Below are positions 1 to 29,617 of a DNA stretch of 32,000 bases, piece by piece. Within the stretch, counting starts at the first letter, position 1. Each line of letters opens with the position of its first letter. The notes under the pieces are model-generated. The model was given only the letters and a program-made list of their open reading frames with translations. It was not told the DNA's origin and did no database searches. The stretch comes from Fimbriiglobus ruber (GTDB lineage Bacteria; Planctomycetota; Planctomycetia; Gemmatales; Gemmataceae), in the NCBI RefSeq assembly GCF_002197845.1, contig NZ_NIDE01000020.1, positions 139,460-171,459 of the forward strand. Direction: 5' to 3'. The translations under genes were made by a program, and so were the position numbers.

Positions 1-247
1 TGCCCCATGAGCCGGGACGGTCGGGGGTCCGGTGGGGGCGGGGGAACCGGGGCGGCCGGGGCGACCCCCAGGACGGCCCCGACCGGGCTCCACGCCGTCC
101 CCCGACCGGGCACGCCGGGGTGTCGGGGTGGACAGTCCCGGCCGCCACCCAGGCGGCCACATGGGCGACCGGGTACGGGCCGGTCGGGACCGGGCCGGTC
201 AGCAGCCAGAGCCCCGGGCCGGACTCGTTCGACGGGGTCATGGTCAT
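1..247 (-). pseudogene. 5' part of a GYF_2-like domain protein gene running off the left edge. The reading frame appears broken at a C5 run.
   Basis: Minus-strand ATG at 247 (a second ATG at 241). The translation MTMTPSNESGPGLWLLTGPVPTGPYPVAHVAAWVAAGTVHPDTPACPVGG has strong GC3 bias and fits the GYF_2 pattern (W...GP...l..w...G.i..dT). The expected continuation TAWSPVGAVLGVAPAAPVPPPP lies in another frame after the CCCCC run at 99-103. The ORF is open at the window edge. Confidence 0.35.
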
Positions 248-513
248 CTCCGAGAGGGATCGAGCGATGGACCGGGTGACCGCTCCCTTCGGGGCGGCCG
301 GCGCCGGCCGGTGAGACCGGCCGCGGATCTCTCCGGGGTCCGGCGGCCGTCTGAGTTCGAGACGATGGTTCGGGATCGCAAGCCGGCCGGGCACACACCC
401 GCGCCGGCCGGGGCGTCAAGCGGCCCCGGTCGGAACGGGAACGGGGTTCCCGGCGAGCGGACATTCGGCGACCGCAAGCCGCCGTTGTGCGAATGGCACG
501 CAGGCATTGTCAT

Positions 514-534
514 TTGACACGCAACTAGTGTCAA
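514..534. promoter_or_regulatory. Perfect 7-bp inverted repeat TTGACAC-N7-GTGTCAA, about 30 bp upstream of the XRE gene. Candidate operator.
   Basis: TTGACAC at 514-520 and its exact reverse complement GTGTCAA at 528-534. It lies in the divergent intergenic region between the ATG at 247 (minus) and the ATG at 562 (plus). Confidence 0.35.
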
Positions 535-561
535 GCGGGCCGCAGCGTATGTTCGCCCGGA

Positions 562-864
562 ATGGCCACCAAAGCCCAGCACGGGGACGATTACGCCCGC
601 CTGCCGGGGTTCCTCCGGGACCTCCGGGAGGCGGCCGGGCTGACCCAGCGGGATCTCGGGCGGGCCGTCGGCCGCCCCCAGAGCTGGGTGTATAACTGCG
701 AGACCGGGAACCGACGGGTGGACGTGACCGAGTTCGCCGCCTGGGCAACCGCGTGCGGGGCCGACCCGCGGGTCGCGTTCGCCCGGTTCCTGGACGCCGG
801 AACCCGCCGGCCGGCCCGGCCGTCGCCGGACACCGCCCCGGGCAGCGGACCCGATCCAGGCTAA
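562..864 (+). CDS. XRE-family helix-turn-helix transcriptional regulator (100 aa)
   Basis: ATG at 562. The stretch LRDLREAAGLTQRDLGRAVGRPQSWVYNCETGNRRVDVTEF is a classic HTH_3 pattern. It is followed by a Pro/Gly-rich tail. Confidence 0.85.
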   Translation: MATKAQHGDDYARLPGFLRDLREAAGLTQRDLGRAVGRPQSWVYNCETGNRRVDVTEFAAWATACGADPRVAFARFLDAGTRRPARPSPDTAPGSGPDPG

Positions 865-906
865 CTCACGGGCCATCATGAGTTATGCCCGAAAAGCCGC
901 GAGAAT

Positions 907-1703
907 TTAGGCGCCCGAGGGGGTTCCACGCGCGGGGCTCGCGGGACGGCCGCCCAGGGCCTCCCGCACGAGATCGCGGATGTCGTCCAGGAACCCCTGC
1001 CCGAGCATCCAGTCGAGATACCCCGGGTCGGTGCGGGCGACAGCGGCCAGCGGCCGACCGGCGTGCTTGCCGAACGCGAACGTCACCCGCCCGGCCGCGT
1101 CCCGCCGGAACCGCCGGGCGACGTCGACCTCGACCAGGGTCGCGTGCAGGGCGGCCGGGTCCGGCGGCAGCCCGTACGCCCCGACCTGGACGTCCAGGAC
1201 GGCGGCCGCCGCCCGCACGTCGGCGGCCGCCGCGTGGGCCCGCGGGTGGGCGCGCCCGAGGTAGAACTTGACCGCCGCGGTCAAATCCCGGGGTTCCATC
1301 CGGTGGTACACGGTCAGGGCGTCAAGGACGGCCCGCCCGCCGACCCGGAACGAGACCCCGGCCCGGGCGAACTCGGCGGCCAGGACGGGCAGGTCGAACC
1401 CGGCGATCCGAACCCGGCCAGGTCGGCGTCAACCAGGAAGGCGGCCAGGCTCCGGGCGATCGCCCGGAACGGCGGGGCGGCGGCCACGGCCGCGTCGGTG
1501 ATCCCGTGGACGGCCGTCGCGGCCGGCGGAATCGGCACCCCGGGGCGGACCCGCTGGTGGCACAACTGGGACCGCCCGTCCGGGGCGATCTTGAGAACGG
1601 CGAACTCGACGATCCGGTCCCGGGCCGGGTCGACCCCGGTCGTCTCCAGGTCGAGCACTGCGAGCGGGCGGGCAAGGGTCAGGTGCGAGAACGGGAAATG
1701 CAA
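907..1703 (-). pseudogene. DEDDh (DnaQ-like) 3'-5' exonuclease with a DUF3820-like C-terminal tail, interrupted by a 1-nt frameshift
   Basis: ORF 1314-1703 gives ExoI LDLETTG and HGITD. The rest of the protein (IAGFDLPVLAAEFARAG..., HAAAAD ExoIII, then KHAGRPL..DPGYLDWML) continues into ORF 907-1311 only after a frame change near 1405-1410. That site lies inside the direct repeat GCCGGGTTCG-N4-GCCGGGTTCG. TTG start at 1703 with AGGAG 7 nt upstream. Confidence 0.75.
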
Positions 1704-1936
1704 TCGGATACTCCTGAAAGCCGTCCGGCGCGCACCCCTCCGACGGTGCGGACGAGTGACGAACGATGCCGGATTTCGGTGTGCGAGGCGGGCGGGTGAC
1801 GAAATTCACTCCGCTCCATTTCCCAGCATGGGAATGAGGGGCGCGGGGCGACGCAGTCCGCCGTCCCCGTTCGAACGGTATTCTTTCTGGGATCATGTCC
1901 CCGAACTCGCGGATCAGGGTGGTGTCGACACCCGTC

Positions 1937-3865
1937 TCAATCGGCCGGCGGTTCCTCCTTCGGTTTCCGTTTTCGGTCCCATCGCGACGCGACCGCGGGT
2001 CGCACCTTGAGTTCGCGGTACGGGTCGGTCAAGCCTTCGGCCGCCATCAGCCGAGCGTACGCGTACGCCCGTTTCACGGTCATCCGGTTGATGTCCAGTT
2101 CGGCGGCGATCTCGTTGAGGCTCGCGTCCGGGCGGGCCGCCTTGGCCGCCAGGCACGCCGGCAGGTGACGGACGTGGACGGGCGGTTGGAACAGGTCGAG
2201 CGTCGTCGACGCCTCGAACGGCGGCTCCCCGGGGGCCGCCCAGGCGTCGAACCGGAGGGTGATCGTGGCCCGGGGCCGGATCGCCGGGCGGTCGAGTTGT
2301 TGGACCGGGCGGATGACGAAGACCGGGAGCAACCGCCGCAGGATCTCGGCGAACTCCGCGGAGGTCTCGGCCATTCGCTCGATCGCTTCGTCCAGGCGGG
2401 CGGCCACGTCGGCGGCCGAGGTGAATTCCCCGGCCGCATCGTGCTCCTCGGCCACCCGGGACCGCTCGCCGCGAGCGGCTTGGAGGGCGTCCTGAACCTC
2501 TTTCAACTCGGTCACCAGCGCCTCGAGTTCCCCGCCCAGGCCGATCGCGGTCGCGAGTCGCTTCGCCCGGACCTCGAGATCCGCGATCTGCCCGTCGAGG
2601 GTGTTCCCGGACTTCTGGCGGCGGCGGCGGTGCCGCCCGAACTCGGCCCAGGCGGCGGCCGCGAGGGTCTCCCGAAACCCCGCCTGGTCGCCGATGATGC
2701 TCATGACCCACGGGATCACGACGGCCCGAACCGTAGCGATGTCGACCTGGACGTGATTCCAGCAACTCCGGGTGCTCCCGGCGAGCGTGTTCTGGCAACG
2801 GAGCAACGTGCCGTACTGATACATCCGGCCGCCGCAACACCCGCACGTCGCGCTCTGGCCCGGCCACCGCGTCCGTTTCCGCGGCTGCCGCCAGAGCGGG
2901 TTCTCTTTGCCCGCCCGCTGCCGCTTCGCCGACGCGGTCCGGCGGGCCTCCACGACCTCCAGGACCGCCGCGTGCTCGTCGGGCGTCAGGTGGCCCAATT
3001 CGGGGTACTCTTTCTCCTCGGGCGGGGCCGGGTTCGGGCACGACCGGTGTTTCCCGGTCCCGTACACCATTTTCGTGATGGTCGTCCGGAACCGCCGCCG
3101 CCCGCTCAGGATCGGGTCGCGGAGCAAGTCCTTGACCGTCCGCCCGGTCCACTGCTCGCGGTCCACGTACGCGCCCGGCGAAACCCCGTCCTGGTTCAAC
3201 CGGTCGGCGACCCGCACGTAACTCCACCCCGCGACCACCCACGCGGCCATCTGGCGGATTGTAGCCGTACAGTCCGGCCGCTTGGCGATCCGCAGGCCGA
3301 CCGGACCGAAGGTCCCGCCGGCCGCCTCCTCCCGGGTCAACTTACGGTACCCGTACTTGATCTTGAGGACCATTCCGCCGTGGGCGAACGACGACGTCGC
3401 CTTCCGCCGCACCCGCTGCCGCGCCTCCGGCACCGTCATCCCGTGCCGCAGCGACGCCGTGTGCATCATGACTTCCCAGTTCACGTCGGCCGTGTCAATG
3501 TTGTCGGCGAGCGACACGAACCGGACATCGGCGTCCAGGCACGCCTGGACGAAGCCCCACTGCATGCGGGGGTTCCGGTAGATCTCCCGCAGCTCGGTCA
3601 CGAGGACCAGGTCCCAGTCTCCGGACGTGACGAGTTCGTCGGCCTCGACCATCGTCTGCCGGTCGACGACCCAGCCACTGGCCTGCTCGCCCAACCGCCG
3701 GATCTCGGTCGGACCCGCGTACACCCGCTGTAACCACCGCTCCGCGTCCTCGTGTTGCGAGGTGATACTCGCCATGTCTTGACCGGGGGTCGAGATGCGG
3801 CCCGGGATGATCACCCGTAGGACTTTGTCGGTGCCCCGGGGGACGAGAGGTGTTCCGAGATTCAT
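1937..3865 (-). CDS. Large serine recombinase (642 aa) with an extra C-terminal HTH
   Basis: ATG at 3865 preceded by GAAAGGAGGTG. N-terminal resolvase-type catalytic domain (VLRVIIPGRISTPGQ, with the Ser nucleophile context). Recombinase domain, then a Cys cluster (CGCCGGRMY...C...C, zinc ribbon), a long coiled coil and a terminal SLNEIAAELDINRMTVKRAY helix-turn-helix. The 840-aa version in the ORF track is an upstream extension overlapping the neighbouring gene. Confidence 0.9.
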   Translation of the reverse strand: MNLGTPLVPRGTDKVLRVIIPGRISTPGQDMASITSQHEDAERWLQRVYAGPTEIRRLGEQASGWVVDRQTMVEADELVTSGDWDLVLVTELREIYRNPRMQWGFVQACLDADVRFVSLADNIDTADVNWEVMMHTASLRHGMTVPEARQRVRRKATSSFAHGGMVLKIKYGYRKLTREEAAGGTFGPVGLRIAKRPDCTATIRQMAAWVVAGWSYVRVADRLNQDGVSPGAYVDREQWTGRTVKDLLRDPILSGRRRFRTTITKMVYGTGKHRSCPNPAPPEEKEYPELGHLTPDEHAAVLEVVEARRTASAKRQRAGKENPLWRQPRKRTRWPGQSATCGCCGGRMYQYGTLLRCQNTLAGSTRSCWNHVQVDIATVRAVVIPWVMSIIGDQAGFRETLAAAAWAEFGRHRRRRQKSGNTLDGQIADLEVRAKRLATAIGLGGELEALVTELKEVQDALQAARGERSRVAEEHDAAGEFTSAADVAARLDEAIERMAETSAEFAEILRRLLPVFVIRPVQQLDRPAIRPRATITLRFDAWAAPGEPPFEASTTLDLFQPPVHVRHLPACLAAKAARPDASLNEIAAELDINRMTVKRAYAYARLMAAEGLTDPYRELKVRPAVASRWDRKRKPKEEPPAD

Positions 3866-5217
3866 CGGGCACCTCCTTTCGCGACCCCGGCGGCCCAGGC
3901 GAGCGACGCCGGCCACCGCCGCAGGGCGGCCTCGATCTGCCCCCGCTGGGTCTCCGGTCGGGTGTGCGTGTAATTCGCCGTCATCCCCAGCCCCCCGCCC
4001 GGCGGCCGGTGGCCGAGGGTAATCTGGCGGACCAGGGGGTCGACGTTGGCGTCCTGTAGGAGCGTCGCGAACGTGTGCCGCCACGATTTCGGGCACGTCG
4101 CGTCGGGGCGGCCGAGGGCGGCCATCGTTCGTACGAACGACGCGCGGACATCGTCCGCCCGGACCGCCCCCGCGTCCTTCCAGACAGATCGCGCGACCCG
4201 CAGGGCGTCCGCCCGGGACGCCCCCGATCCGCTGCCCTCTTGCCGCTGGAGGCAGACCCGTTCCAGCTCGCGGTGGTCGCCGCTCAGAGCCGGGGTGGTC
4301 CCGCGCTCGAACGACTCCCGGAGGAAGACCGGACCGGACCGCCGGGGGCCGATCACCCGCCGGAGGACGGCCACCCCCTCGGGGAGAACCGGGACGGACC
4401 GCTCCGACCCCGTCTTGATCCGCCACCCGAGGGCGGTTTTGTTCCGGACGTGCAACCACCCGGCCGCAAGGTCCAGGTCCTCAATGAGCAAGTGGGTCAA
4501 CTCGCCGACCCGGAGCCCGGTCTTGGCCAGCGTGAAATGAATCGGCCCGGCCCACGGGGACGCGGACATCAGGAACGCCAACTCAGTGGCCGCATCGAAC
4601 ACGAAAATCGGTTTCGCATCGGTGATCGTCATCCGGTCGAGCGGGAGTTCGGCGAATGGGTTGCCGGCATACGGCGGCAGGTGCCGCCGCTTGGCCGCGA
4701 ACGCGTACATCGCTCGGCACGTTTCCAGAATAAATTGGACGCCCTTGTCGCGGAGTCGCCTTCGGGCGGTGTTCGGGTGCCCGTTCGGGGCAACCTCGAC
4801 CACCCGCAGGTGGGCGACGAAGCGGTCGGGGTTGACATCGTGGGCCAGCGGCGGGCGGGGTTGGCGGGCGGCGAAGTCGGCCAGGTGACGGGTGGCCGCG
4901 CGATACCGGGTGACGGTCGCCAGCGAGGAGTTGAGAACGTGTTCGTGGTAGATGAGGAATTCGTCCCGCAGCGCCGCCACGCTGACCGGGGTGAACGCCA
5001 ACAGGGTCGGGGCGCCGGCCGCCAACTGGGCGTTGACCTGGGCGGCCACCCGGACGGCCTCGTCCTTCGTCGCGGCGACTTTCCGGCGGACCGGCCGCCC
5101 GGCGTCGCGGTAGTACACCCACCACGCGCCGTGGTGGAAATAGACGGACACCCGGCCGACGCGGTGCCGAGCCGGCCGACCCTTCTTGCGAGACGACACG
5201 ATCACACTCCCGTGCAC
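3862..5217 (-). CDS. Tyrosine recombinase / integrase (451 aa)
   Basis: GTG at 5217. Catalytic signature RVGELTHL (Arg), SWRHTFATLL (H-x-x-R), TLGHRP and MTANYTHT (Tyr). The stop TGA overlaps the serine recombinase start (ATGA at 3862-3865). Confidence 0.9.
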   Translation of the reverse strand: MHGSVIVSSRKKGRPARHRVGRVSVYFHHGAWWVYYRDAGRPVRRKVAATKDEAVRVAAQVNAQLAAGAPTLLAFTPVSVAALRDEFLIYHEHVLNSSLATVTRYRAATRHLADFAARQPRPPLAHDVNPDRFVAHLRVVEVAPNGHPNTARRRLRDKGVQFILETCRAMYAFAAKRRHLPPYAGNPFAELPLDRMTITDAKPIFVFDAATELAFLMSASPWAGPIHFTLAKTGLRVGELTHLLIEDLDLAAGWLHVRNKTALGWRIKTGSERSVPVLPEGVAVLRRVIGPRRSGPVFLRESFERGTTPALSGDHRELERVCLQRQEGSGSGASRADALRVARSVWKDAGAVRADDVRASFVRTMAALGRPDATCPKSWRHTFATLLQDANVDPLVRQITLGHRPPGGGLGMTANYTHTRPETQRGQIEAALRRWPASLAWAAGVAKGGAR

Positions 5218-5240
5218 CGAATGTGCACCGAATGTGCACC
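5212..5240. repeat. 11-bp tandem repeat GTGCACCGAAT x2.6, placing three GTGCAC palindromes 11 bp apart
   Basis: Read directly: gtgcaccgaat (5212-5222), gtgcaccgaat (5223-5233), gtgcacc (5234-5240). The first unit contains the predicted GTG start of the tyrosine recombinase. Confidence 0.85.
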
Positions 5241-5320
5241 AGAGACGTGTCGATGACGGAGGGAAAATGACGCAAGCGATTGGAATTTATCGGCTTACGT
5301 CACGCGAACAGAAAATGAAA

Positions 5321-5408
5321 CGGAGAGGGAGGGATTCGAACCCTCGGTAAGGACAAGCCCTACTCCGGTTTTCAAGACCGGCCCATTAAACCACTCTGGC
5401 ACCTCTCC
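5321..5408 (-). tRNA. tRNA-Ser (anticodon UGA), class II with a long variable arm, no encoded CCA
   Basis: The reverse complement reads GGAGAGGTGCCAGAGTGG...CCGGTCTTGAAAACCGG...GAGGGTTCGAATCCCTCCCTCTCCG. It has a 7-bp acceptor stem, the anticodon loop CT-TGA-AA, a long extra arm, a GTTCGAATC T-loop and discriminator G. Confidence 0.95.
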
Positions 5409-5442
5409 AAATATTGATCTCCTTACGTGTCAACATCTTGCG

Positions 5443-6591
5443 TCATTTGCTCGGATCCTCACTTGTTACTGTTTCGAACGTATGGCAAACCCGTGGCAAA
5501 CCGGAACTAATTGGCTCCACTGGGGCATTGTACATCCCCAGGAAGGCGTCGGTGAGACGGATCTGATCGTTTTGCAGGGCGTGACCGTAGACCCGCAGGA
5601 CCATCGACGGGTCGGAGTGCCCGAGGCGGCGGGCCACGCTCAGAACGTTGGCGCCGCTCGACATAAGGAGGGTGGCTCCTGTGTGGCGCAGTTCGCCCGG
5701 CACCCATCCCTTCAGGCCGGCGGCTGCGGCCAGCACCTTCCACTGCGAAACGAGTCCGTAGTAGGAGATGTGGCCGCGAGACGTACCGGGGAAGATCCAA
5801 TCGGTCGACTTGCAGACCTTGCGGTAGGTGTCCAAAGCCGTAATCGTCGGCATAGTCAGCGGGACGGTACGCCGGCTGAATTCGTTTTTCAGCCCCTTCA
5901 CCTCTCCAGTCTCGGGGCAGATGGCTCTCACGATTTTGATTTGCCGGCCGTCGTAGTCTTCCCAGCGGAGGGCGATCAGTTCTCGGGGTCGCGTACAGCA
6001 CTCCACCCCGAGCCGGACGATGATTCCGAAGTGCGGCCGTTTGGCGAAATCGTCGGCGACTTTCACGAGGCCGACGAACTGCTCCAATGTGAGCGATCGC
6101 CGTTTCGCCCGAACCACCTTCGGGGGCGTGATTTTATCGAGCGTCGAATTCGGTAACGTGGGATGGGAGCGGAGTATCTTCGAGAGCGTGGAGAACGCGC
6201 GGTGCCGCTGGTCGGCGGACTTGCCGGCCTTCATCATGCTCGTCAGCCACTTGCGTACCTTCGCGGCCAGCTCGACATGATCAGCGACGAGACACTTCGC
6301 CAGGTCGGGACGTATCAGCGACTCAATCACTTCCTTGTCTCGGCCGACCGTCTTGGCCTCTACCTGCGTCTCTTGAATCGCAATCCATTCGTCCAGCCAT
6401 TCCCCGAGCGTACCCGAATCCTTTGGCCGGTCGACGTGCTCGCGGATCCACGCCAGGGCATCCGTCTTCCGGTCGAATACCTTGGATCGGCCTGGACCGT
6501 TCGGCCCCGGGAGTTTCGCGCGGAACTGGCCGTCGCCATGCGGTAGGGCAGACCCTTCACCTTGCCCGCGGGAGCCTTTTTTTTTGGCCAC
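5443..6591 (-). CDS. int: Phage-type tyrosine integrase (382 aa)
   Basis: GTG at 6591 with AAGGAG 7 nt upstream. Motifs TRPRELIALRW (Arg), LRHTGATLL (H-x-x-R) and LGHSDPSMVLRVYGH (His..Tyr). Codons 3-5 form an A9 run. Confidence 0.9.
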   Translation of the reverse strand: MAKKKGSRGQGEGSALPHGDGQFRAKLPGPNGPGRSKVFDRKTDALAWIREHVDRPKDSGTLGEWLDEWIAIQETQVEAKTVGRDKEVIESLIRPDLAKCLVADHVELAAKVRKWLTSMMKAGKSADQRHRAFSTLSKILRSHPTLPNSTLDKITPPKVVRAKRRSLTLEQFVGLVKVADDFAKRPHFGIIVRLGVECCTRPRELIALRWEDYDGRQIKIVRAICPETGEVKGLKNEFSRRTVPLTMPTITALDTYRKVCKSTDWIFPGTSRGHISYYGLVSQWKVLAAAAGLKGWVPGELRHTGATLLMSSGANVLSVARRLGHSDPSMVLRVYGHALQNDQIRLTDAFLGMYNAPVEPISSGLPRVCHTFETVTSEDPSK

Positions 6592-16186: not shown

Positions 16187-16639
16187 GTGAACGAAGAGGC
16201 CGCGTTCAACGCGTGGCTCGACGCCAACCCGCACGACTCGGTGGCCCGGGGCGCGTACGCCGACTGGCTCCGGGAACAGGATGACCCGAGATGCGACTGG
16301 TACGAGCTGGCAAGTCGGACAGGGCGGGTGCCGACAAACAGCGGGCACAAACCTTCCGTTTGGTTTCGCTGGTATTGGTTGGAAATCATGGCAGAGTCGC
16401 CACTGTTTAAATTCGTTGAACACTGCAGGCTGCCTTGGGAATTTCTGCAAAATGACCAAATTCATCTGAGCACTTTTATTTCTCGTCAAGCCGCGGAAGA
16501 CGCCTGTGCCAACGCCTTCGCCTCCCTCCCCGCCGAGGGCCAGGCCGCCGTGGAAGCGGAGATTCGGGGTATTGGGAGCGGACGCGGGGAACTCAGGGGG
16601 TGCAGACGTGAGCGAATAGGAGCGGCTACCACTGACTGA
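16187..16639 (+). CDS. TIGR02996-domain protein (about 150 aa), second paralogue in the element
   Basis: NEEAAFNAWLDANPHDSVARGAYADWLREQDDPR matches the TIGR02996 pattern. I chose the GTG at 16187 because GC3 bias begins there and family members start just before this motif. The ORF-track start is 16106. The 3' end overlaps phoH convergently by 14 nt. Confidence 0.7.
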   Translation: MNEEAAFNAWLDANPHDSVARGAYADWLREQDDPRCDWYELASRTGRVPTNSGHKPSVWFRWYWLEIMAESPLFKFVEHCRLPWEFLQNDQIHLSTFISRQAAEDACANAFASLPAEGQAAVEAEIRGIGSGRGELRGCRRERIGAATTD

Positions 16640-17357
16640 CCACCTGCTGGACCAGCGGGCTCCGCACGATGTCCGCCGGTCCCAACCGCACGTGACCCAT
16701 GAGGCCGCCCCGCAGACGCTCCACGGCCCGCGGGAGGCCCGGCAACAACCTCGCGGGCAAGTCGGTTTGTTCCAGATCCCCGGTAACAATAACCCGCGTG
16801 CCGTCGCCGGGTCGCGTGAGCAGCATGAACATCTGCTGCTCCGTCGCGTTCTGCCCCTCGTCCAGAATCACGCACGCACCTCGCAGCGTCGACCCCCGCA
16901 GGTATTGGAGCGGGGAGATTATCACCTGCCGCGACTCAATCAGCCGGTCCATTGCCGCCCCCGTCTCATCTCCCAGATACTCGCAGAGGGCGTCGAGGAG
17001 CGGGGCGAAGTACGGGCCGACCTTCTCGCCGAGATCCCCCTTGTGGTAGCCCAATTCGCCGCCACACGTCACAGTTGGGCGGACGAGTACGATGCGGCGA
17101 ATCTCGCCCCGTTGGAGTTGCTGGAGGGCGTGCGATGCCGCAAGGAACGTCTTGCCCGTGCCGGCCGGTCCGGTGACGAATAGGAGTTGATAATCGGGGT
17201 TGCGGAGGGCGGCTAAATAGGGCCGTTGGCCGGGGGTTCGGGCCGTCAATTGCGGAAGTGGCTTTGGCTGAGCTGCGGGGGCGATTTTAGGGGCTTTTGA
17301 CTTCCGCGGTGGGCGGGGCATGGGTGGTCGCCGTGGGGTGGGCGGGACTCTCGACAC
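16626..17357 (-). CDS. phoH: PhoH-like ATPase (243 aa)
   Basis: Walker A FVTGPAGTGKT. RIVLVRPTVTCGGELGYHKGDLGEKVGPY. Walker B CVILDEGQN. Also VIVTGDLEQTDLP. Alternative start ATG at 17321. Confidence 0.9.
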   Translation of the reverse strand: MSRVPPTPRRPPMPRPPRKSKAPKIAPAAQPKPLPQLTARTPGQRPYLAALRNPDYQLLFVTGPAGTGKTFLAASHALQQLQRGEIRRIVLVRPTVTCGGELGYHKGDLGEKVGPYFAPLLDALCEYLGDETGAAMDRLIESRQVIISPLQYLRGSTLRGACVILDEGQNATEQQMFMLLTRPGDGTRVIVTGDLEQTDLPARLLPGLPRAVERLRGGLMGHVRLGPADIVRSPLVQQVVSQW

Positions 17358-19460: not shown

Positions 19461-20651
19461 CTACGGCTTCAGGACCGGGGTGTACCCGCCCGGGACGGTC
19501 ACGGTTTTCTTGTCGAGGTCGATGGTGATGGACCCGGCGGCCGGGGTCGGCGGATTGGGAGCCGGGGGCACGGGTGGAACCGGCGGGGTAGGGCCGGGCG
19601 GCACAGGAGCCGTCCCGTTAATCTTCGCCCACGCCGCCGCGTAACCGATCTGGGCCGAGTTGCGGGCGATCCGCATGCAACCCTTCTCGCCCCAGGACTC
19701 GTTCCAATGGTTTTGCATGATCCAGCACGGAGGGGAAGTCGTATCGTCCCATCCGAGCAGGTTGACGGCGTGGTCCACGTCGCCAGCGGTCAGCGGCGGG
19801 CCGGTGAAAATCCCACTGGAGTAGGCCATGAAATTATCGTCTGCCGCCACGCAGACCGAGATTTGCCCATAGGCCAGAATCGCATCCTTGACGCTCTGCT
19901 CATCCGGAATCGTGGAATCGCTGCCGACGTACCCATGCGCATCGATCTTGTGGGTTCCTGCCGCCCCGCTGCACTGGCCGACCGCGCCGTTGTAGGGCGA
20001 CTGGGTCGCGTCGTTGTCGGTGTTCCCGAGCAACCATTCCATTACGTCGGACGGGAACCCACCGTCGCAACCGCCCGTGTTCGAACACGCCAGCGTGTGG
20101 GCGTAGGACCATGTCACCGTGTTCTTGACTCCGGCCTTCTTCTCAGCCGACATACAGGCCTTGTCTGCCGAGAAGTTGTAGCAGTCGCCGCACTGCATCT
20201 GATCATCAACATCTGTCGCAAAGCCGAGCGGCCGAATGTCGTATTGGGCTTGCGTGGCTCGCGGCAGGACGGGCCGGTAAGGGGCTTTCGCCTTGATCCG
20301 CTCGTGCAAGTTCGCGGGCAGTTTCAAGCCCTTGACGGACCTGGAAGCGGCCTTGAACGACTCCTTGCCGATCTGGTGGTTTGTGAACCCGGCCTTCAGG
20401 TGAATCTCGTGGCTCAGGGCTTCGAGCTGGGCCACCTTGTCGAACACGGGCGACCGCTTCGTCTTGAATTTGTGGCCGTTGGACTTCAGGTGGGCGTCGA
20501 TCGCCGCGAGGCGGGCATCGGCCGGATGAGTCTTCGCAGCGGCGGCCACGGCCGGAGGAGTCACCAGGTTGCTCACAGTCGCTGCGGACACCGCCGCAAT
20601 GACGACCGCGATCGCGCTGATGCCGATCAATAGGTAGGAAACTTTTCGCAA
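19461..20651 (-). CDS. Papain-family (peptidase C1) cysteine protease with an N-terminal signal anchor and a Pro-rich C-terminal linker
   Basis: DQMQCGDCYNFSA (Gln oxyanion residue plus catalytic Cys). GGCDGGF. DHAVNLLGWDD (catalytic His). WIMQNHWNESWGEKGCMRI (Asn/Trp). The N-terminus MRKVSYLLIGISAIAVVIAAVSAATVS is an Ala/Ser/Gly-rich helix. The tail contains PVPPGPTPPVPPVPPAPNPPTP. I chose the TTG at 20651 (GGAG 6 nt upstream, no overlap). The ORF-track start at 20762 overlaps the upstream gene by 82 nt. Confidence 0.85.
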   Translation of the reverse strand: MRKVSYLLIGISAIAVVIAAVSAATVSNLVTPPAVAAAAKTHPADARLAAIDAHLKSNGHKFKTKRSPVFDKVAQLEALSHEIHLKAGFTNHQIGKESFKAASRSVKGLKLPANLHERIKAKAPYRPVLPRATQAQYDIRPLGFATDVDDQMQCGDCYNFSADKACMSAEKKAGVKNTVTWSYAHTLACSNTGGCDGGFPSDVMEWLLGNTDNDATQSPYNGAVGQCSGAAGTHKIDAHGYVGSDSTIPDEQSVKDAILAYGQISVCVAADDNFMAYSSGIFTGPPLTAGDVDHAVNLLGWDDTTSPPCWIMQNHWNESWGEKGCMRIARNSAQIGYAAAWAKINGTAPVPPGPTPPVPPVPPAPNPPTPAAGSITIDLDKKTVTVPGGYTPVLKP

Positions 20652-20680
20652 AGTCGCACTCCGAACAGGTAAAGGGTCTC

Positions 20681-21127
20681 TCACTTTTTCGCCACCAACC
20701 GCGGCTTCCGCCGCTCCAACTCGTTCGGCACGTCGCTCGCGTATAGCGGCATGATCTGCCACAGTGGGATCTCGTCGGGGGTCAGCATCCCCGCCGCCCG
20801 CAACTCATCCTCAAGAACCCGCCGCCGGTCGCACGCATCCCAGAACCGCGTCGCATGTTCCGGGAGCCGTTCCCGCCCGCACATCGCCATCCATGCCGAC
20901 AACCGCACCCCGCCGTCTACGAGCCACGGGCACCGACCTGCCGCGATCCGCCCCGCCCGGTAGGCCCGCTCCGGGTCGTCGCTCACGTCCAACGCCGCGG
21001 CCAGGGTGCCCAGCGGGGAGGAGCGGAGGCGGGCGTCGGCCCGGTCCCTGACGGTCCAGTTGGGGGACGCGAGGGCGGAGAGGCTGGGGCCGTAGAGGAT
21101 GGCGAGGAGGAGGCGGGCGAGGATCAC
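20681..21127 (-). CDS. Secreted hypothetical protein (148 aa)
   Basis: The GTG at 21127 forms a GTGA overlap with the upstream stop. Signal-peptide-like MILARLLLAILYGPSLSALASP. Confidence 0.65.
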   Translation of the reverse strand: MILARLLLAILYGPSLSALASPNWTVRDRADARLRSSPLGTLAAALDVSDDPERAYRAGRIAAGRCPWLVDGGVRLSAWMAMCGRERLPEHATRFWDACDRRRVLEDELRAAGMLTPDEIPLWQIMPLYASDVPNELERRKPRLVAKK

Positions 21128-24376: not shown

Positions 24377-24904
24377 TCATGTCGTCAGGGGATCGCCTGC
24401 CCCGGCCGCCAACAGCCCGAGCGTGGTGGTGACGATCGTGGCCTGGTCGAGCCTTGCTCCGCACTGAGCGGCCACGGTCGCGGGGTCGGTCGCACCGGCG
24501 ATGCCGCCCGGTCCGCGGTTCGCTGCAATTTGGGCGGTGATCGCAGCGGCAGTGGGCATGGCCACGTTGGCCGCCGCCGCGATCAATTGGAGGGTCGCCC
24601 AGAGCCCTTCGGCCACGTCGTTCACCCGGTAGTGGAGGGCCGCGTCCCCGGCCCTGGCCCCCGTTGCGGTCGGTGAGACGCCGCCGAGCATGTCCGCCTG
24701 GGCCGACTGCGTTAGCCACGTCGTCGTTGCCGCGGTCAAGTCGCCGACCGTGTCCGGCAGCGGTCCGCCGATCTGGGGCGGCGGCCCCGACCAATAAAAT
24801 ACCTGATACCCGGGGTACAAAGCCGGGTTAACGGTGGTGTCATCGTGAGTCGCAAATATGCTCCCCGTAACGCCGTCCGCGTTGATGGACGCGACAATTT
24901 GCAT
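24377..24904 (-). CDS. Hypothetical protein adjacent to the tail fibres (175 aa)
   Basis: The ATG at 24904 overlaps the upstream stop (TGATG). Ala/Thr/Gly-rich. Its position suggests a fibre accessory or assembly role, but I recognised no motif. Confidence 0.6.
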   Translation of the reverse strand: MQIVASINADGVTGSIFATHDDTTVNPALYPGYQVFYWSGPPPQIGGPLPDTVGDLTAATTTWLTQSAQADMLGGVSPTATGARAGDAALHYRVNDVAEGLWATLQLIAAAANVAMPTAAAITAQIAANRGPGGIAGATDPATVAAQCGARLDQATIVTTTLGLLAAGAGDPLTT

Positions 24905-26604
24905 CACAGTGCCCGGAAGTTCGTGAGTTTCGGGTAAGCCGTGTACGACCCGCTGCCGAGGTAGTACCACCCGCACCCGGCCGACAGCAGCGTGTTCGCG
25001 TAGGTCGAGTCAGTGGCTGTTATGATCGTGGTCCCGTCGAGCTGGACCGTGATAGATGAACCCAACATGATCACGGTCAGAGTGTGTGTGGCGCTCGCGG
25101 CCCACGAGAAGGTGTAGGCGGTCCCGAGTACCGTCGCCGCGTTGGACACGAACTTTTGTAGGGTGACTTTCCCCGTGTTCGTGTCATAGGCCACCTGATA
25201 CCCGTTCTGGTTGATCGTGCCGGTCCCGAGGCGAGTCCAGATCTCGCCGGCCCAACTGCCCGACGCCGGGGCCGTAAAGTCGCATGAAATCGTGTAATCG
25301 CCCTTCCCCAGGTTCATGTAGCAGATCGTGTTGCCGCTACTCGCCCCGGCTTGAATCAGAGCGTTACCACTAATCTGTCCAGTCCCGCCGACGATTGACC
25401 ACGCCGGCCCCCACGTAGGGGTGTGAGCGGTGATATTCGTACTCGTGGTGTCGATAAAAGCGTCATACGCCGTCATCCCGTTGAACCCGGGACCAGACAC
25501 TAAAGCGCCATAGTTACTAACGATACCGAGCGGCGGACTGAACAGTGCCGTGTTGCCGACATTGACGGCGGTCAATGGGTAGGTACACGCTGCTACGGTG
25601 ACTTTGGCTCCCTGTTGCGACAATACGACCTGAGAATTCCCGTAGAACTGGACCGCTTGAAGTAACGCTTCCCCGCCATACGCCGCACTGACCGCGGCCG
25701 AGGTGCAGTAGGTAATGAGGCCGCCGAAAAGCTGGACGTGGCCCATGCCGGCCGTCAGGTCGATTCCAGCCCCGCAGGCGCTGATACTGAGTCCGGTATT
25801 TGATGAAAAAAAGAATCCGGGTCCATACGTCCGGACTCCGATCGTACACCCGGTGATAGAAATGGTCCCGGAGGTGTTGAGTTCGCCGTCCCCGATTTGG
25901 GCGCCGGTCGTGAGGTTTTCAATCGTGCATGCCGTTATTGTCGTTCGGGACCGTCCCGTCTGGTTGATGCCGGTCTGACCATTGATCGTCGTGCCGTTAA
26001 TTGTGAGATTGGAAACCGTCAATCTCACGTTGTCGGCCGCCACGGTGATGCAAGTGGCCGACGCCGCAACAGTCAATATTGTACTGCTGCCATTAATAAT
26101 CAGACTGCCGCTTTGCGGTCCATTGATCGTGACCGCCGTGTTGGCGAAAGTCTGACTCGCCAGAGCCAGCGTCACGCTATTCGTCGGCGCGACTTCGCAA
26201 TCTCGACAGAATAGTAACGCGTTGGCGATCGTCGTGAACCGGGACGACGTGCCGACCGCCAGGGATACGTTGGCCGCGACGAACCACAGTTTCCAGTACG
26301 TGTAGGCGTCGGTCGTCGGGTCGTTACCCGTGGTCGAGGCGATGCACTGGTAGTAGTTCCCGTCACTCCCGATGACGACGGCTCCGGCCCCGTAGGTCGT
26401 CGTTGACAAGTAAGTTGCTAGACCGTCTTGCAACAGTGCGAACGTCCCGGCCTTGTCCGGGAGCGTAAATGTGCGAGCAGCCGTCAACCCTGTGGGGTCC
26501 ACCACAGCGAGCCCGAGTTCCAAAGCATCGGTGCCCGACTGGAACTCGTCCGACGCGAGAGTCGACGAGTCTCGGTAGAGCGGGCTGCGAGGGGTGCCGG
26601 CCAC
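24904..26604 (-). CDS. Tail fibre/tailspike with a parallel beta-helix middle part and a lectin-like C-terminal domain (566 aa)
   Basis: GTG at 26604. Repetitive T/S/G/N-rich rungs (LTVSNLTINGTTINGQTGINQTG..ITACTIENLTTGAQIG..ISITGCTIG...) are typical of pectate-lyase-like beta-helices. YYQCIASTTGNDPTTDAYTYWKLW is a fibre-type motif. The C-terminal ~180 aa is a beta-sandwich-like sequence. Confidence 0.8.
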   Translation of the reverse strand: MAGTPRSPLYRDSSTLASDEFQSGTDALELGLAVVDPTGLTAARTFTLPDKAGTFALLQDGLATYLSTTTYGAGAVVIGSDGNYYQCIASTTGNDPTTDAYTYWKLWFVAANVSLAVGTSSRFTTIANALLFCRDCEVAPTNSVTLALASQTFANTAVTINGPQSGSLIINGSSTILTVAASATCITVAADNVRLTVSNLTINGTTINGQTGINQTGRSRTTITACTIENLTTGAQIGDGELNTSGTISITGCTIGVRTYGPGFFFSSNTGLSISACGAGIDLTAGMGHVQLFGGLITYCTSAAVSAAYGGEALLQAVQFYGNSQVVLSQQGAKVTVAACTYPLTAVNVGNTALFSPPLGIVSNYGALVSGPGFNGMTAYDAFIDTTSTNITAHTPTWGPAWSIVGGTGQISGNALIQAGASSGNTICYMNLGKGDYTISCDFTAPASGSWAGEIWTRLGTGTINQNGYQVAYDTNTGKVTLQKFVSNAATVLGTAYTFSWAASATHTLTVIMLGSSITVQLDGTTIITATDSTYANTLLSAGCGWYYLGSGSYTAYPKLTNFRAL

Positions 26605-29008: not shown

Positions 29009-29617
29009 CTACCGCTCCCCGTCGTCCGTCATGTGCTCCCTGAGCATCCCCACCGCCTCGCCCATCAACTGATCCACTCGCCCCTGCGTCAGTCCCATGA
29101 TCGTCGCCGTCGTCTTCTTGCTGGCCGGGTCGCCACCGATGCCGGCCCGCAGTTTCACGACCGTTCGATGCGGCTCCGGGAGATATCGAACTGCCTCGCG
29201 CAACTGAACCATCTCCCCCGCCGCGTCCAGCTCCGCTTCGCCGCTCGCCCGCTGGTCGGCTAGCCCTTCCCACCCGTCGTCGTCGTCCTTCGTCTCGACA
29301 AACTGTTTGCCTGTTCGATCGTAGAACCTGACCAGTTCGACGATGGCCCCGCGGATAAACTTTGCCGCGTAGGTGTCGACCGTCTCGCCCCACCCCGGCT
29401 GCCAAGTCGCCGCCGCCTCGCACACCGCCTGAAGCACCGCCGCATTGACTTCGTCCCGCCGAAAGTGCCAGTGCGGGGCGTAGACCATTGCCGCGACCTT
29501 GGGTGCCAGCATCTTCAGAATGGCCAGCGGCTCGGGATAGCGGCGGTAGAAGTCCAAGACGAGCTGTTGCTGGTGCTCGCTGAGGGTCGGCGTGGGGCGT
29601 GGCGGGGGCGTGTCCAC
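29009..29617 (-). CDS. Sigma-70-family (ECF-like, regions 2 and 4) RNA polymerase sigma factor (202 aa)
   Basis: Region-2-like VNAAVLQAVCEAAATW...TYAAKFIRGAIVELVRF. Region-4 LPEPHRTVVKLRAGIGG...TTATIMGLTQGRVDQLMGEAVGMLREHM (HTH). GTG start at 29617. Confidence 0.8.
   Translation of the reverse strand: MDTPPPRPTPTLSEHQQQLVLDFYRRYPEPLAILKMLAPKVAAMVYAPHWHFRRDEVNAAVLQAVCEAAATWQPGWGETVDTYAAKFIRGAIVELVRFYDRTGKQFVETKDDDDGWEGLADQRASGEAELDAAGEMVQLREAVRYLPEPHRTVVKLRAGIGGDPASKKTTATIMGLTQGRVDQLMGEAVGMLREHMTDDGER

Follow-up and report, generated by a model that had tools for sequence, protein, structure and literature searches.

A recurrent pair of unrelated recombinases beside tRNA-Ser genes in Planctomycetota: the probable left end of a Fimbriiglobus ruber mobile island

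Why would two site-specific recombinases of mechanistically unrelated families be encoded back to back, in overlapping reading frames, beside the 3' end of a tRNA gene? This question is raised by a 32,000-nt stretch of the Fimbriiglobus ruber contig NZ_NIDE01000020.1 (hereafter the window), in which positions 1937-5320 of the minus strand hold a tyrosine integrase gene followed by that of a large serine recombinase (LSR). We analyzed the pair together with two samples of related loci: 80 genome loci with alignable relatives of the window's tyrosine integrase (loci are labelled by an L and a number) and a metagenome sample whose loci were chosen through the serine enzyme alone, 48 of which were informative. 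LSRs orthologous to that of the window, at 35-58% identity, are termed SerA. On balance, we favour the reading that positions 1-5337 are the left end (attL, on the tRNA side) of a mobile island that carries a composite dual-recombinase module. The part of this reading that concerns the integrase is held with high confidence, and the role that it gives to the LSR is tentative.

A sequence-only reading of the window had placed both genes in one operon, and the coordinates that it gave for the tRNA-Ser gene, the two recombinase genes, the ATGA overlap and the embedded Shine-Dalgarno (SD) sequence proved correct by ARAGORN, by the open reading frames (ORFs) and by direct reading. The junction sequence is ...GAAAGGAGGTGCCCGATGAATCTC; the serine frame is listed as far as 4459 merely because it stays open, and the real start is the ATG at 3865. 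Among SerA genome loci, 13 of 20 have a gap of -14 to +23 nt between the genes together with a GGAGG formed by the Gly-Gly codons at the integrase C-terminus. The ATGA overlap is identical in L084, L014 and L015, and the same ATGA/SD geometry is found with another LSR subtype in L038/L039. A scan of positions 1600-5480 found no minus-strand terminator between the two genes and no sigma-70-like promoter, the latter a weak negative as planctomycete promoters are not covered by such a scan. We predict that the LSR is co-transcribed and translationally coupled with the integrase. The junction also bears on the alternative that two independent elements became nested, such that an LSR with its cargo inserted at or after the 3' end of the integrase gene, the enzymes have no functional tie and their coupling was fixed by descent. 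We consider this unlikely, though a serious contender. The overlap and embedded SD sequence leave no non-coding room for an att site of 40-50 bp, they are kept from 72% down to 47% integrase identity and with a second LSR subtype, and in most members of the integrase family the C-terminal Gly-Gly codons double as the SD sequence.

The tyrosine-LSR pairing recurs across Planctomycetota, and the two enzymes form a tightly coupled unit. The tyrosine enzyme of the window is 100% identical to F. ruber NCBI protein P0115 and has at least 1000 relatives, the best 120 of them at 62-73% identity, while the serine enzyme is 100% identical to F. ruber protein P0001 and has 114 detectable relatives at 38-59% identity. 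Named matches to both are nearly all from Planctomycetota, and at least 13 pairs of tyrosine and serine matches lie on contigs of equal size. An LSR lies directly behind the integrase in ~37 of the 44 close-clade loci with enough downstream sequence (~84%). In the 48 metagenome loci selected through the LSR, a tyrosine integrase is immediately upstream in 21 and within 2.5 kb in 5, another LSR is upstream in 10 and no integrase is present in 12; SerA proteins at least 50% identical to the window LSR are coupled to a tyrosine integrase in 9-10 of 11 metagenome loci. The pair is thus not unique to this genome, and in this lineage no element boundary is visible between the two genes. The arrangement goes well beyond chance, the complete layout being repeated on dozens of unrelated contigs. 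Pairwise identities of the integrases track those of the LSRs (Mantel test, r = 0.82 overall; r = 0.79 within SerA and 0.96 within another subtype; p < 0.001 for each), and recently moved elements (L012/L011/L013 and L019/L033) carry the integrase and its LSR(s) jointly. That the two enzymes co-diverge and move as one between tRNA isoacceptors again argues against nesting of independent elements. In an independent short-read assembly (L081; Logan contig ERR3330974_917, 3770 bp), the sequence starts within the tRNA, stops 311 bp beyond the serine recombinase gene and is broken on both flanks of the two-gene block, which may reflect repeats or strain variation at the block edges. One IMG/VR contig, the sole one in the viral collection, carries the module. 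A phylum-wide coupled unit of two unrelated recombination chemistries is new as far as the searched literature shows: islands that target tRNA genes are textbook material, as are serine integrases, but a conserved tyrosine-LSR unit with coupled genes was not described there.

At which sites does the pair reside? A full same-strand tRNA-Ser gene lies upstream of the integrase at 58 of the 80 genome loci, typically 90-190 nt away, with the anticodons gga (20 loci), gct (18), cga (13) and tga (7). Where more than 300 nt of upstream sequence is available (n = 70), 57 loci have a full tRNA-Ser gene, 12 a tRNA 3' fragment and one neither; the 12 fragments consist of just the last 17-25 nt (GAATCC...CCTCTCCGC) upstream of the integrase. 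Elements at different isoacceptors can be nearly identical. Between L012 (gct) and L011/L013 (tga), identity is 98-99% over at least 7 kb, starting in the acceptor 3' strand of the tRNA and running through the integrase and two LSR genes; the tRNA bodies are different, and the flanks upstream bear no relation to each other. A single genome carries both L019 (cga) and L033 (gga), which have the same breakpoint and share the integrase, the LSR and 390 bp at 86%, and several copies per genome at different isoacceptors are also represented by L022/L028. Since near-identical elements occupy differing isoacceptors and contexts, the family is mobile, and since identity begins at the acceptor 3' strand, the crossover region is located toward the 3' end of the tRNA; the exact crossover point would fall within this 3' segment. 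The acceptance of any tRNA-Ser is explained by the 3' core of ~17-25 nt that is common to all four isoacceptors.

Beyond the tRNA, the element brings its own sequence. The terminator-like hairpin directly 3' of the tRNA folds at -17.6 kcal/mol (z = -4.15), and other loci have equivalent hairpins with a CGYAAG stem in the same position. Further downstream, the three GGTGCAC repeats of the window account for two overlapping matches to the repeat pattern, against 0.02 expected, and are followed immediately by the SD sequence and start codon of the integrase. At least three GTGCA repeats are present in 31 of 59 loci, mostly at the same three offsets from the tRNA end as in the window. A distant integrase clade (43-50% identity; L052-L080) has three TTTGT(G/A)GCG repeats (TTTGTGGCG x3) at the equivalent position, ~78-110 nt past the tRNA-Ser end. 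A different clade thus goes with a different repeat sequence, such that the motif covaries with the enzyme. We infer that the GGTGCAC repeats are arm-type (P' arm) sites of a heterobivalent integrase. Since they overlap the region of the integrase's own ribosome-binding site (RBS), autoregulation through these predicted sites would be possible. In L052-L080, an inverted repeat, CTTTCAGAG ... CTCTGAAAG, often encloses these repeats and could place the RBS in a sequestering RNA hairpin. An integrase found in nature that takes all four tRNA-Ser isoacceptors as targets, through a core of 17-25 bp and with readable predicted arm sites, would be of interest in its own right.

The tyrosine enzyme itself is well supported as a tRNA-Ser-specific island integrase, probably of the lambda type. 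It matches Pfam Phage_integrase at 43.9 bits (cut-off 27.1) and the PHROG integrase family phrog_1 with an E-value of 2.5e-31, and none of the named NCBIfam families reached its cut-off. The AlphaFold model, with a predicted local distance difference test (pLDDT) score of 74, has a four-stranded sheet and a helix at residues 17-66 (strands within 17-48), followed by core-binding and catalytic domains, and in Foldseek it aligned over 414-425 columns with full-length lambda Int, with Tn1549 Int also among the matches. The catalytic signatures ascribed to both enzymes in the sequence-only reading hold as far as the catalytic residues are concerned; the supposed HxxR box of the integrase is in fact KSWR (K377-S-W-R380), so the integrase lacks the His-II of tyrosine recombinases. 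K377 is invariant across 22 family members, as are R236, K268, R380, H403 and Y416, and the His-II position of the HxxR box tolerates substitutions in active tyrosine recombinases. The real start is probably GTG 5199, rather than GTG 5217 of the longest ORF, because this start agrees with P0115 and with homologues, whose N-termini read MSSRKK, and GGGAG precedes it by 7 nt. This puts 120 nt rather than 102 nt between the tRNA end and the gene, which amends the distance of about 100 bp given earlier and leaves the classic tRNA-then-integrase layout of an island end in place.

The window LSR is a bona fide large serine recombinase, probably active as judged from sequence and model, with a family-specific C-terminal extension. 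It matches Pfam Resolvase (PF00239, 42.6 bits; cut-off 23.3) and Recombinase (PF07508, 35.4 bits; cut-off 21.1), and R23 and the catalytic S25 are invariant in 39 sequences. Pfam Zn_ribbon_recom has no match in the LSR. The zinc ribbon and coiled coil that had been claimed for it are supported instead by four invariant cysteines (C341, C344, C357 and C368), by the AlphaFold model (pLDDT 85.7), which comprises a catalytic domain, a long helix, a recombinase domain, zinc-ribbon hairpins (347-357) and helices with a coiled coil (395-477), and by the best Foldseek matches, which are full-length serine integrases of the PhiC31/Bxb1 type (E 4e-16 to 3e-11). The extra C-terminal helix-turn-helix (HTH) that the sequence-only reading had noticed was likewise recovered, as a conserved beta/helical HTH-like region at ~515-610 that includes weak, sub-threshold HTH_23/Sigma70_r4 matches at residues 577-604. 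The protein ends in a tail, DPYREL..P..ASRW (window 1940-2030), that is common to the SerA subtype, with P623, R628 and W629 invariant; the ASRW tail may be an interaction motif. A similar AASRW tail is found in the L085 member of the L012-type LSRs (1568-3658).

Under the composite reading, the tyrosine integrase would dock or excise the whole island at the tRNA-Ser 3' end, where the element would rebuild the tRNA end, supply a terminator and carry the three predicted arm repeats 80-108 nt from the crossover. The LSR, which heads the variable cargo, would give the cargo a second, tRNA-independent route, either by integration elsewhere or by inversion or exchange relative to the att-integrase cassette; the reaction assigned here to the LSR is a putative one.

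Several observations weigh against this reading. Neither an att site for the LSR nor a recombination directionality factor (RDF) was found, and a search for terminal inverted repeats in L139, a locus that lacks the tyrosine enzyme, gave no convincing pair. The attR, a second copy of the tRNA 3' end, did not rise above chance within 11 kb downstream at ~57 loci, by exact and mismatch-tolerant search, nor was it found in the 5.3 kb of the window available, and the extent and excision competence of the island are unproven. The partial-tRNA junctions, which are structurally equal to attP, read equally well as junctions of tandem arrays or as unrecombined attP, in which case the element can have been inserted by other means. 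Joint vertical inheritance of the two genes, following one nesting event, could account for the Mantel correlation. About 16% of close integrase relatives are without an adjacent LSR and about one quarter of SerA homologues are without a nearby tyrosine integrase, and neither enzyme, therefore, strictly needs the other. At least four LSR subtypes, at 25-58% identity to the window LSR, stand behind a much better conserved integrase, and in four to five loci (L012, L013, L046, L085) an extra LSR gene of 2.43-2.51 kb lies between the integrase and SerA. This variety of subtypes, with the extra LSR, looks like insertion and swapping of modules rather than a fixed two-enzyme machine.

Nesting of independent elements draws its support from the same observations, that is, from the several LSR subtypes in one slot and the LSR-only insert ahead of SerA, and from loci in which the two enzymes have parted. 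L139 (7623-21000) and L140 have two tandem LSR paralogues (an LSR and SerA) with DUF1257/DUF2997/AAA/ThiF cargo and no tyrosine integrase, tRNA or att core; the insert lies between housekeeping-type genes, at a non-tRNA site, and resembles an LSR-only form of the element, with a pairing that recalls CcrAB. In L026 (1-12900) and L138 (1-17600), an LSR with cargo lies inverted to the left of a partial-tRNA, attP-like site whose two sides bear P-arm-like and GGTGCAC repeats, respectively; to the right of the site are the integrase, LSR(s) and the same cargo again. The two cargo copies of L138 are 82-84% identical at the DNA level and are joined to different LSR subtypes, and a C-terminal remnant of SerA lies beside the left LSR. 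SerA is truncated in L044, and some other loci have the tyrosine integrase only. The LSR with its cargo is therefore a semi-independent module that occurs alone, inverted, duplicated or exchanged for other subtypes. Of the single dedicated operon first proposed, the recurrent coupled unit stands and the exclusiveness does not.

At L082 (6314-7702), a SerA-type LSR, preceded by another LSR, lies behind a distantly related tyrosine recombinase of 462 aa, with no tRNA and no GGTGCAC; the tyrosine-then-LSR order thus recurs with another integrase family.

A bolder version of the composite reading is a two-tier platform, in which the tyrosine enzyme anchors an att-integrase cassette at any tRNA-Ser and the co-expressed LSR(s) capture, invert or swap LSR-led defence modules. 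We think this improbable. It would explain the varied LSR subtypes, the mirror-image LSR-cargo copies and the solitary LSR-cargo units; no attI/attC-like array, as of an integron-like platform, was found. If true, the platform would amount to cassette exchange in a form borne by recombinases, and exchange of modules by an LSR beside a tyrosine anchor would be a new principle of island assembly.

Given the tight translational coupling, another possibility is that the LSR is an accessory of the integrase life cycle that resolves tandem arrays or circle multimers or controls directionality. The partial-tRNA junctions fit tandem arrays, and a special interaction could run through the conserved extra HTH-like region and the ASRW tail. 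However, the LSR has an integrase/transposase architecture, unlike the small resolvases, each enzyme is seen without the other, and the exchangeable subtypes argue against a specific partner interaction. We give this explanation a low probability.

We regard it as very improbable that the pair is an old, domesticated host module of host-like composition, with one enzyme integrating and the other inverting or resolving for the host, as the sequence-only reading had suggested. Gimesia species carry a tyrosine-LSR block at the same tRNA-Ser(gga) gene with syntenic upstream flanks (L021, L025, L028), and some copies are thus stably inherited. Yet the L025 and L028 elements are 89.7% similar to one another as against 75% for their flanks, several copies per genome occupy different isoacceptors (L019/L033, L022/L028), and the 98-99% identical elements lie at different tRNA-Ser isoacceptors in unrelated contexts and carry variable, defence-type cargo. 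The composition is not host-like either. GC content is 0.70-0.74 in the pair, unlike the remaining ~27 kb of the window, with 0.69-0.74 across positions 1-5000 and 0.57-0.67 (about 0.62) across positions 5400-32000. We found no evidence for the proposed division of labour between integration and inversion or resolution.

How does the module compare with known systems? LSRs are familiar as the phage integrases PhiC31, Bxb1 and A118/LI, the transposases TnpX/TndX and CcrAB of SCCmec. The window LSR shares their order of catalytic, recombinase and zinc ribbon/coiled coil regions, the catalytic serine and a full-length structural match, and differs in being only 13-15% identical to solved ones, in its HTH-like region and ASRW tail, and in its placement behind, and coupling to, a tyrosine integrase. 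Two tandem LSR paralogues, as in CcrA/CcrB, occur in related loci and not in the window, which has one LSR. RIT elements and Tn554-type modules combine several recombinases, all of them tyrosine enzymes. Like the pair in the window, they have overlapping recombinase genes that share an operon at a mobile-element end, whereas here two mechanistically unrelated families are combined. Membership in the RIT or CcrAB groups was ruled out, as the pair consists of a single tyrosine enzyme and a single serine enzyme.

Lambda/P4-type islands that target tRNA genes include the tycheposons, which are tRNA-specific, carry a tyrosine recombinase or, rarely, an LSR, and leave partial tRNAs (Hackl et al., bioRxiv 10.1101/2020.12.28.424599). 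The family described here shares with such islands an integrase that adjoins the intact tRNA 3' end, a short identity segment, partial tRNA copies at junctions, variable and often defensive cargo, an integrase clade that goes with the tRNA type and a heterobivalent architecture with arm-type repeats, which in our case is a predicted one. It differs in that one integrase clade uses all four tRNA-Ser isoacceptors, in that the three fixed-distance repeats overlap the RBS region of the integrase, and in having KxxR for HxxR. In contrast to tycheposons, the integrase is translationally coupled to an LSR in most members. Six of 199 integrative and conjugative elements (ICEs) carry both serine and tyrosine recombinases and were read as composite (Cury et al. 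2017, bioRxiv 10.1101/135814). The presence of both enzyme classes on one element, and accretion of modules as its usual reading, are common to those ICEs and to our loci; there the combination is rare and is treated as composite or incidental, whereas here it is lineage-wide, adjacent, same-strand, coupled, co-diverging and moving as one. On the tRNA-Ser islands of Planctomycetes and on DUF1257/DUF2997 elements, the literature searched gave general statements only.

The divergent LSR set, with its extra domain of DNA-binding appearance, is of further interest as its substrates could come to light from a comparison of the many arrangements. The family also offers a handle on the shuffling of defence cargo (CRISPR-Cas, STAND NTPases and ubiquitin-like systems) in Planctomycetota, whose mobile elements are, to our knowledge, hardly characterised.

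Table 1. Positions of the recombinase pair, its attachment region and neighbouring features in the window.
Feature	Position	Strand	Basis or remark
tRNA-Ser(UGA), intact, integration target	5320-5409	-	ARAGORN; sole tRNA in the window
Probable att identity segment GAATCCCTCCCTCTCCG	5321-5337	-	T-loop 3' half, T-stem 3' strand, acceptor 3' strand, discriminator
Core pattern of tRNA 3' end, GAATCC(N3)CCTCTCCG	window tRNA-Ser	-	
Terminator-like hairpin and U-run, element-supplied, directly 3' of tRNA	5263-5303 (hairpin 5267-5303)	-	RNA fold
Three direct GGTGCAC repeats, 11-nt period	5212-5240	-	at +80/+91/+102 from tRNA end
Tyrosine integrase, 445 aa from GTG 5199 (longest ORF from GTG 5217)	3862-5199	-	Pfam PF00589
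SD sequence GAAAGGAGGTG for the LSR, within the last codons of the integrase (..KGGAR*)	3870-3880	-	direct reading
ATGA stop/start overlap	3862-3865	-	TGA 3862-3864, ATG 3863-3865
Large serine recombinase, 642 aa	1937-3865	-	Pfam Resolvase and Recombinase
DEDDh/RNase_T-type exonuclease with ExoX-like C-terminus, first visible cargo, two ORFs	907-1703	-	Pfam RNase_T 1314-1703, ExoX-like_C 907-1311
XRE-type HTH protein, high-GC island interior	562-864	+	Pfam HTH_31, 57.9 bits
Second, unrelated tyrosine integrase, 382 aa	5443-6591	-	34 nt from tRNA 5' end
PhoH-like protein	16626-17357		phage-like region
Papain-like protease	19461-20762		phage-like region
Tail-fibre-like protein	24904-26604		phage-like region
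Sigma-like protein	29009-29617		phage-like region

The island extends past the left edge of the window (Table 1). Its first visible cargo, the exonuclease, has PADLOC DEDDh / PDC-S48 matches and a GC content of 0.73-0.75, and its split into two ORFs is possibly a frameshift, a pseudogene or a sequencing error. The variable cargo behind the LSR is often of a defence type. L083 carries IS110 and a type I-C CRISPR-Cas system, L084 carries a 1525-aa nSTAND NTPase, and a recurrent cargo block comprises DUF1257, DUF2997, AAA ATPase, ThiS-like, ThiF/E2-like and JAB proteins, with weak PADLOC matches.

On the other side of the tRNA, the second tyrosine integrase stands at the head of 26 kb or more of DNA that is lower in GC (~0.62) and has phage-like genes, and tRNA-Ser(UGA) appears to have a foreign element on either flank. 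It is unusual for an integrase to lie 5' of an intact tRNA, and the window tRNA may represent the attR copy of a prophage with a tRNA-Ser of full length.

In Gimesia islands (L020, L021, L022, L025, L028), a motif of ~55 bp, CTAAATTTTGGCCCAAATCGTGTCATAATAGATAGGGG..., forms same-strand direct repeats ~250 bp past the LSR (e.g. L028 13609-13660; L022 3781, 6148 and 6282) and bounds variable inserts of 0.7-2.4 kb. It was set aside as a cassette site of the module, being restricted to the Gimesia lineage, promoter-like in appearance and absent from the window. Within these islands, it could be either a repeated promoter or a recombination site.

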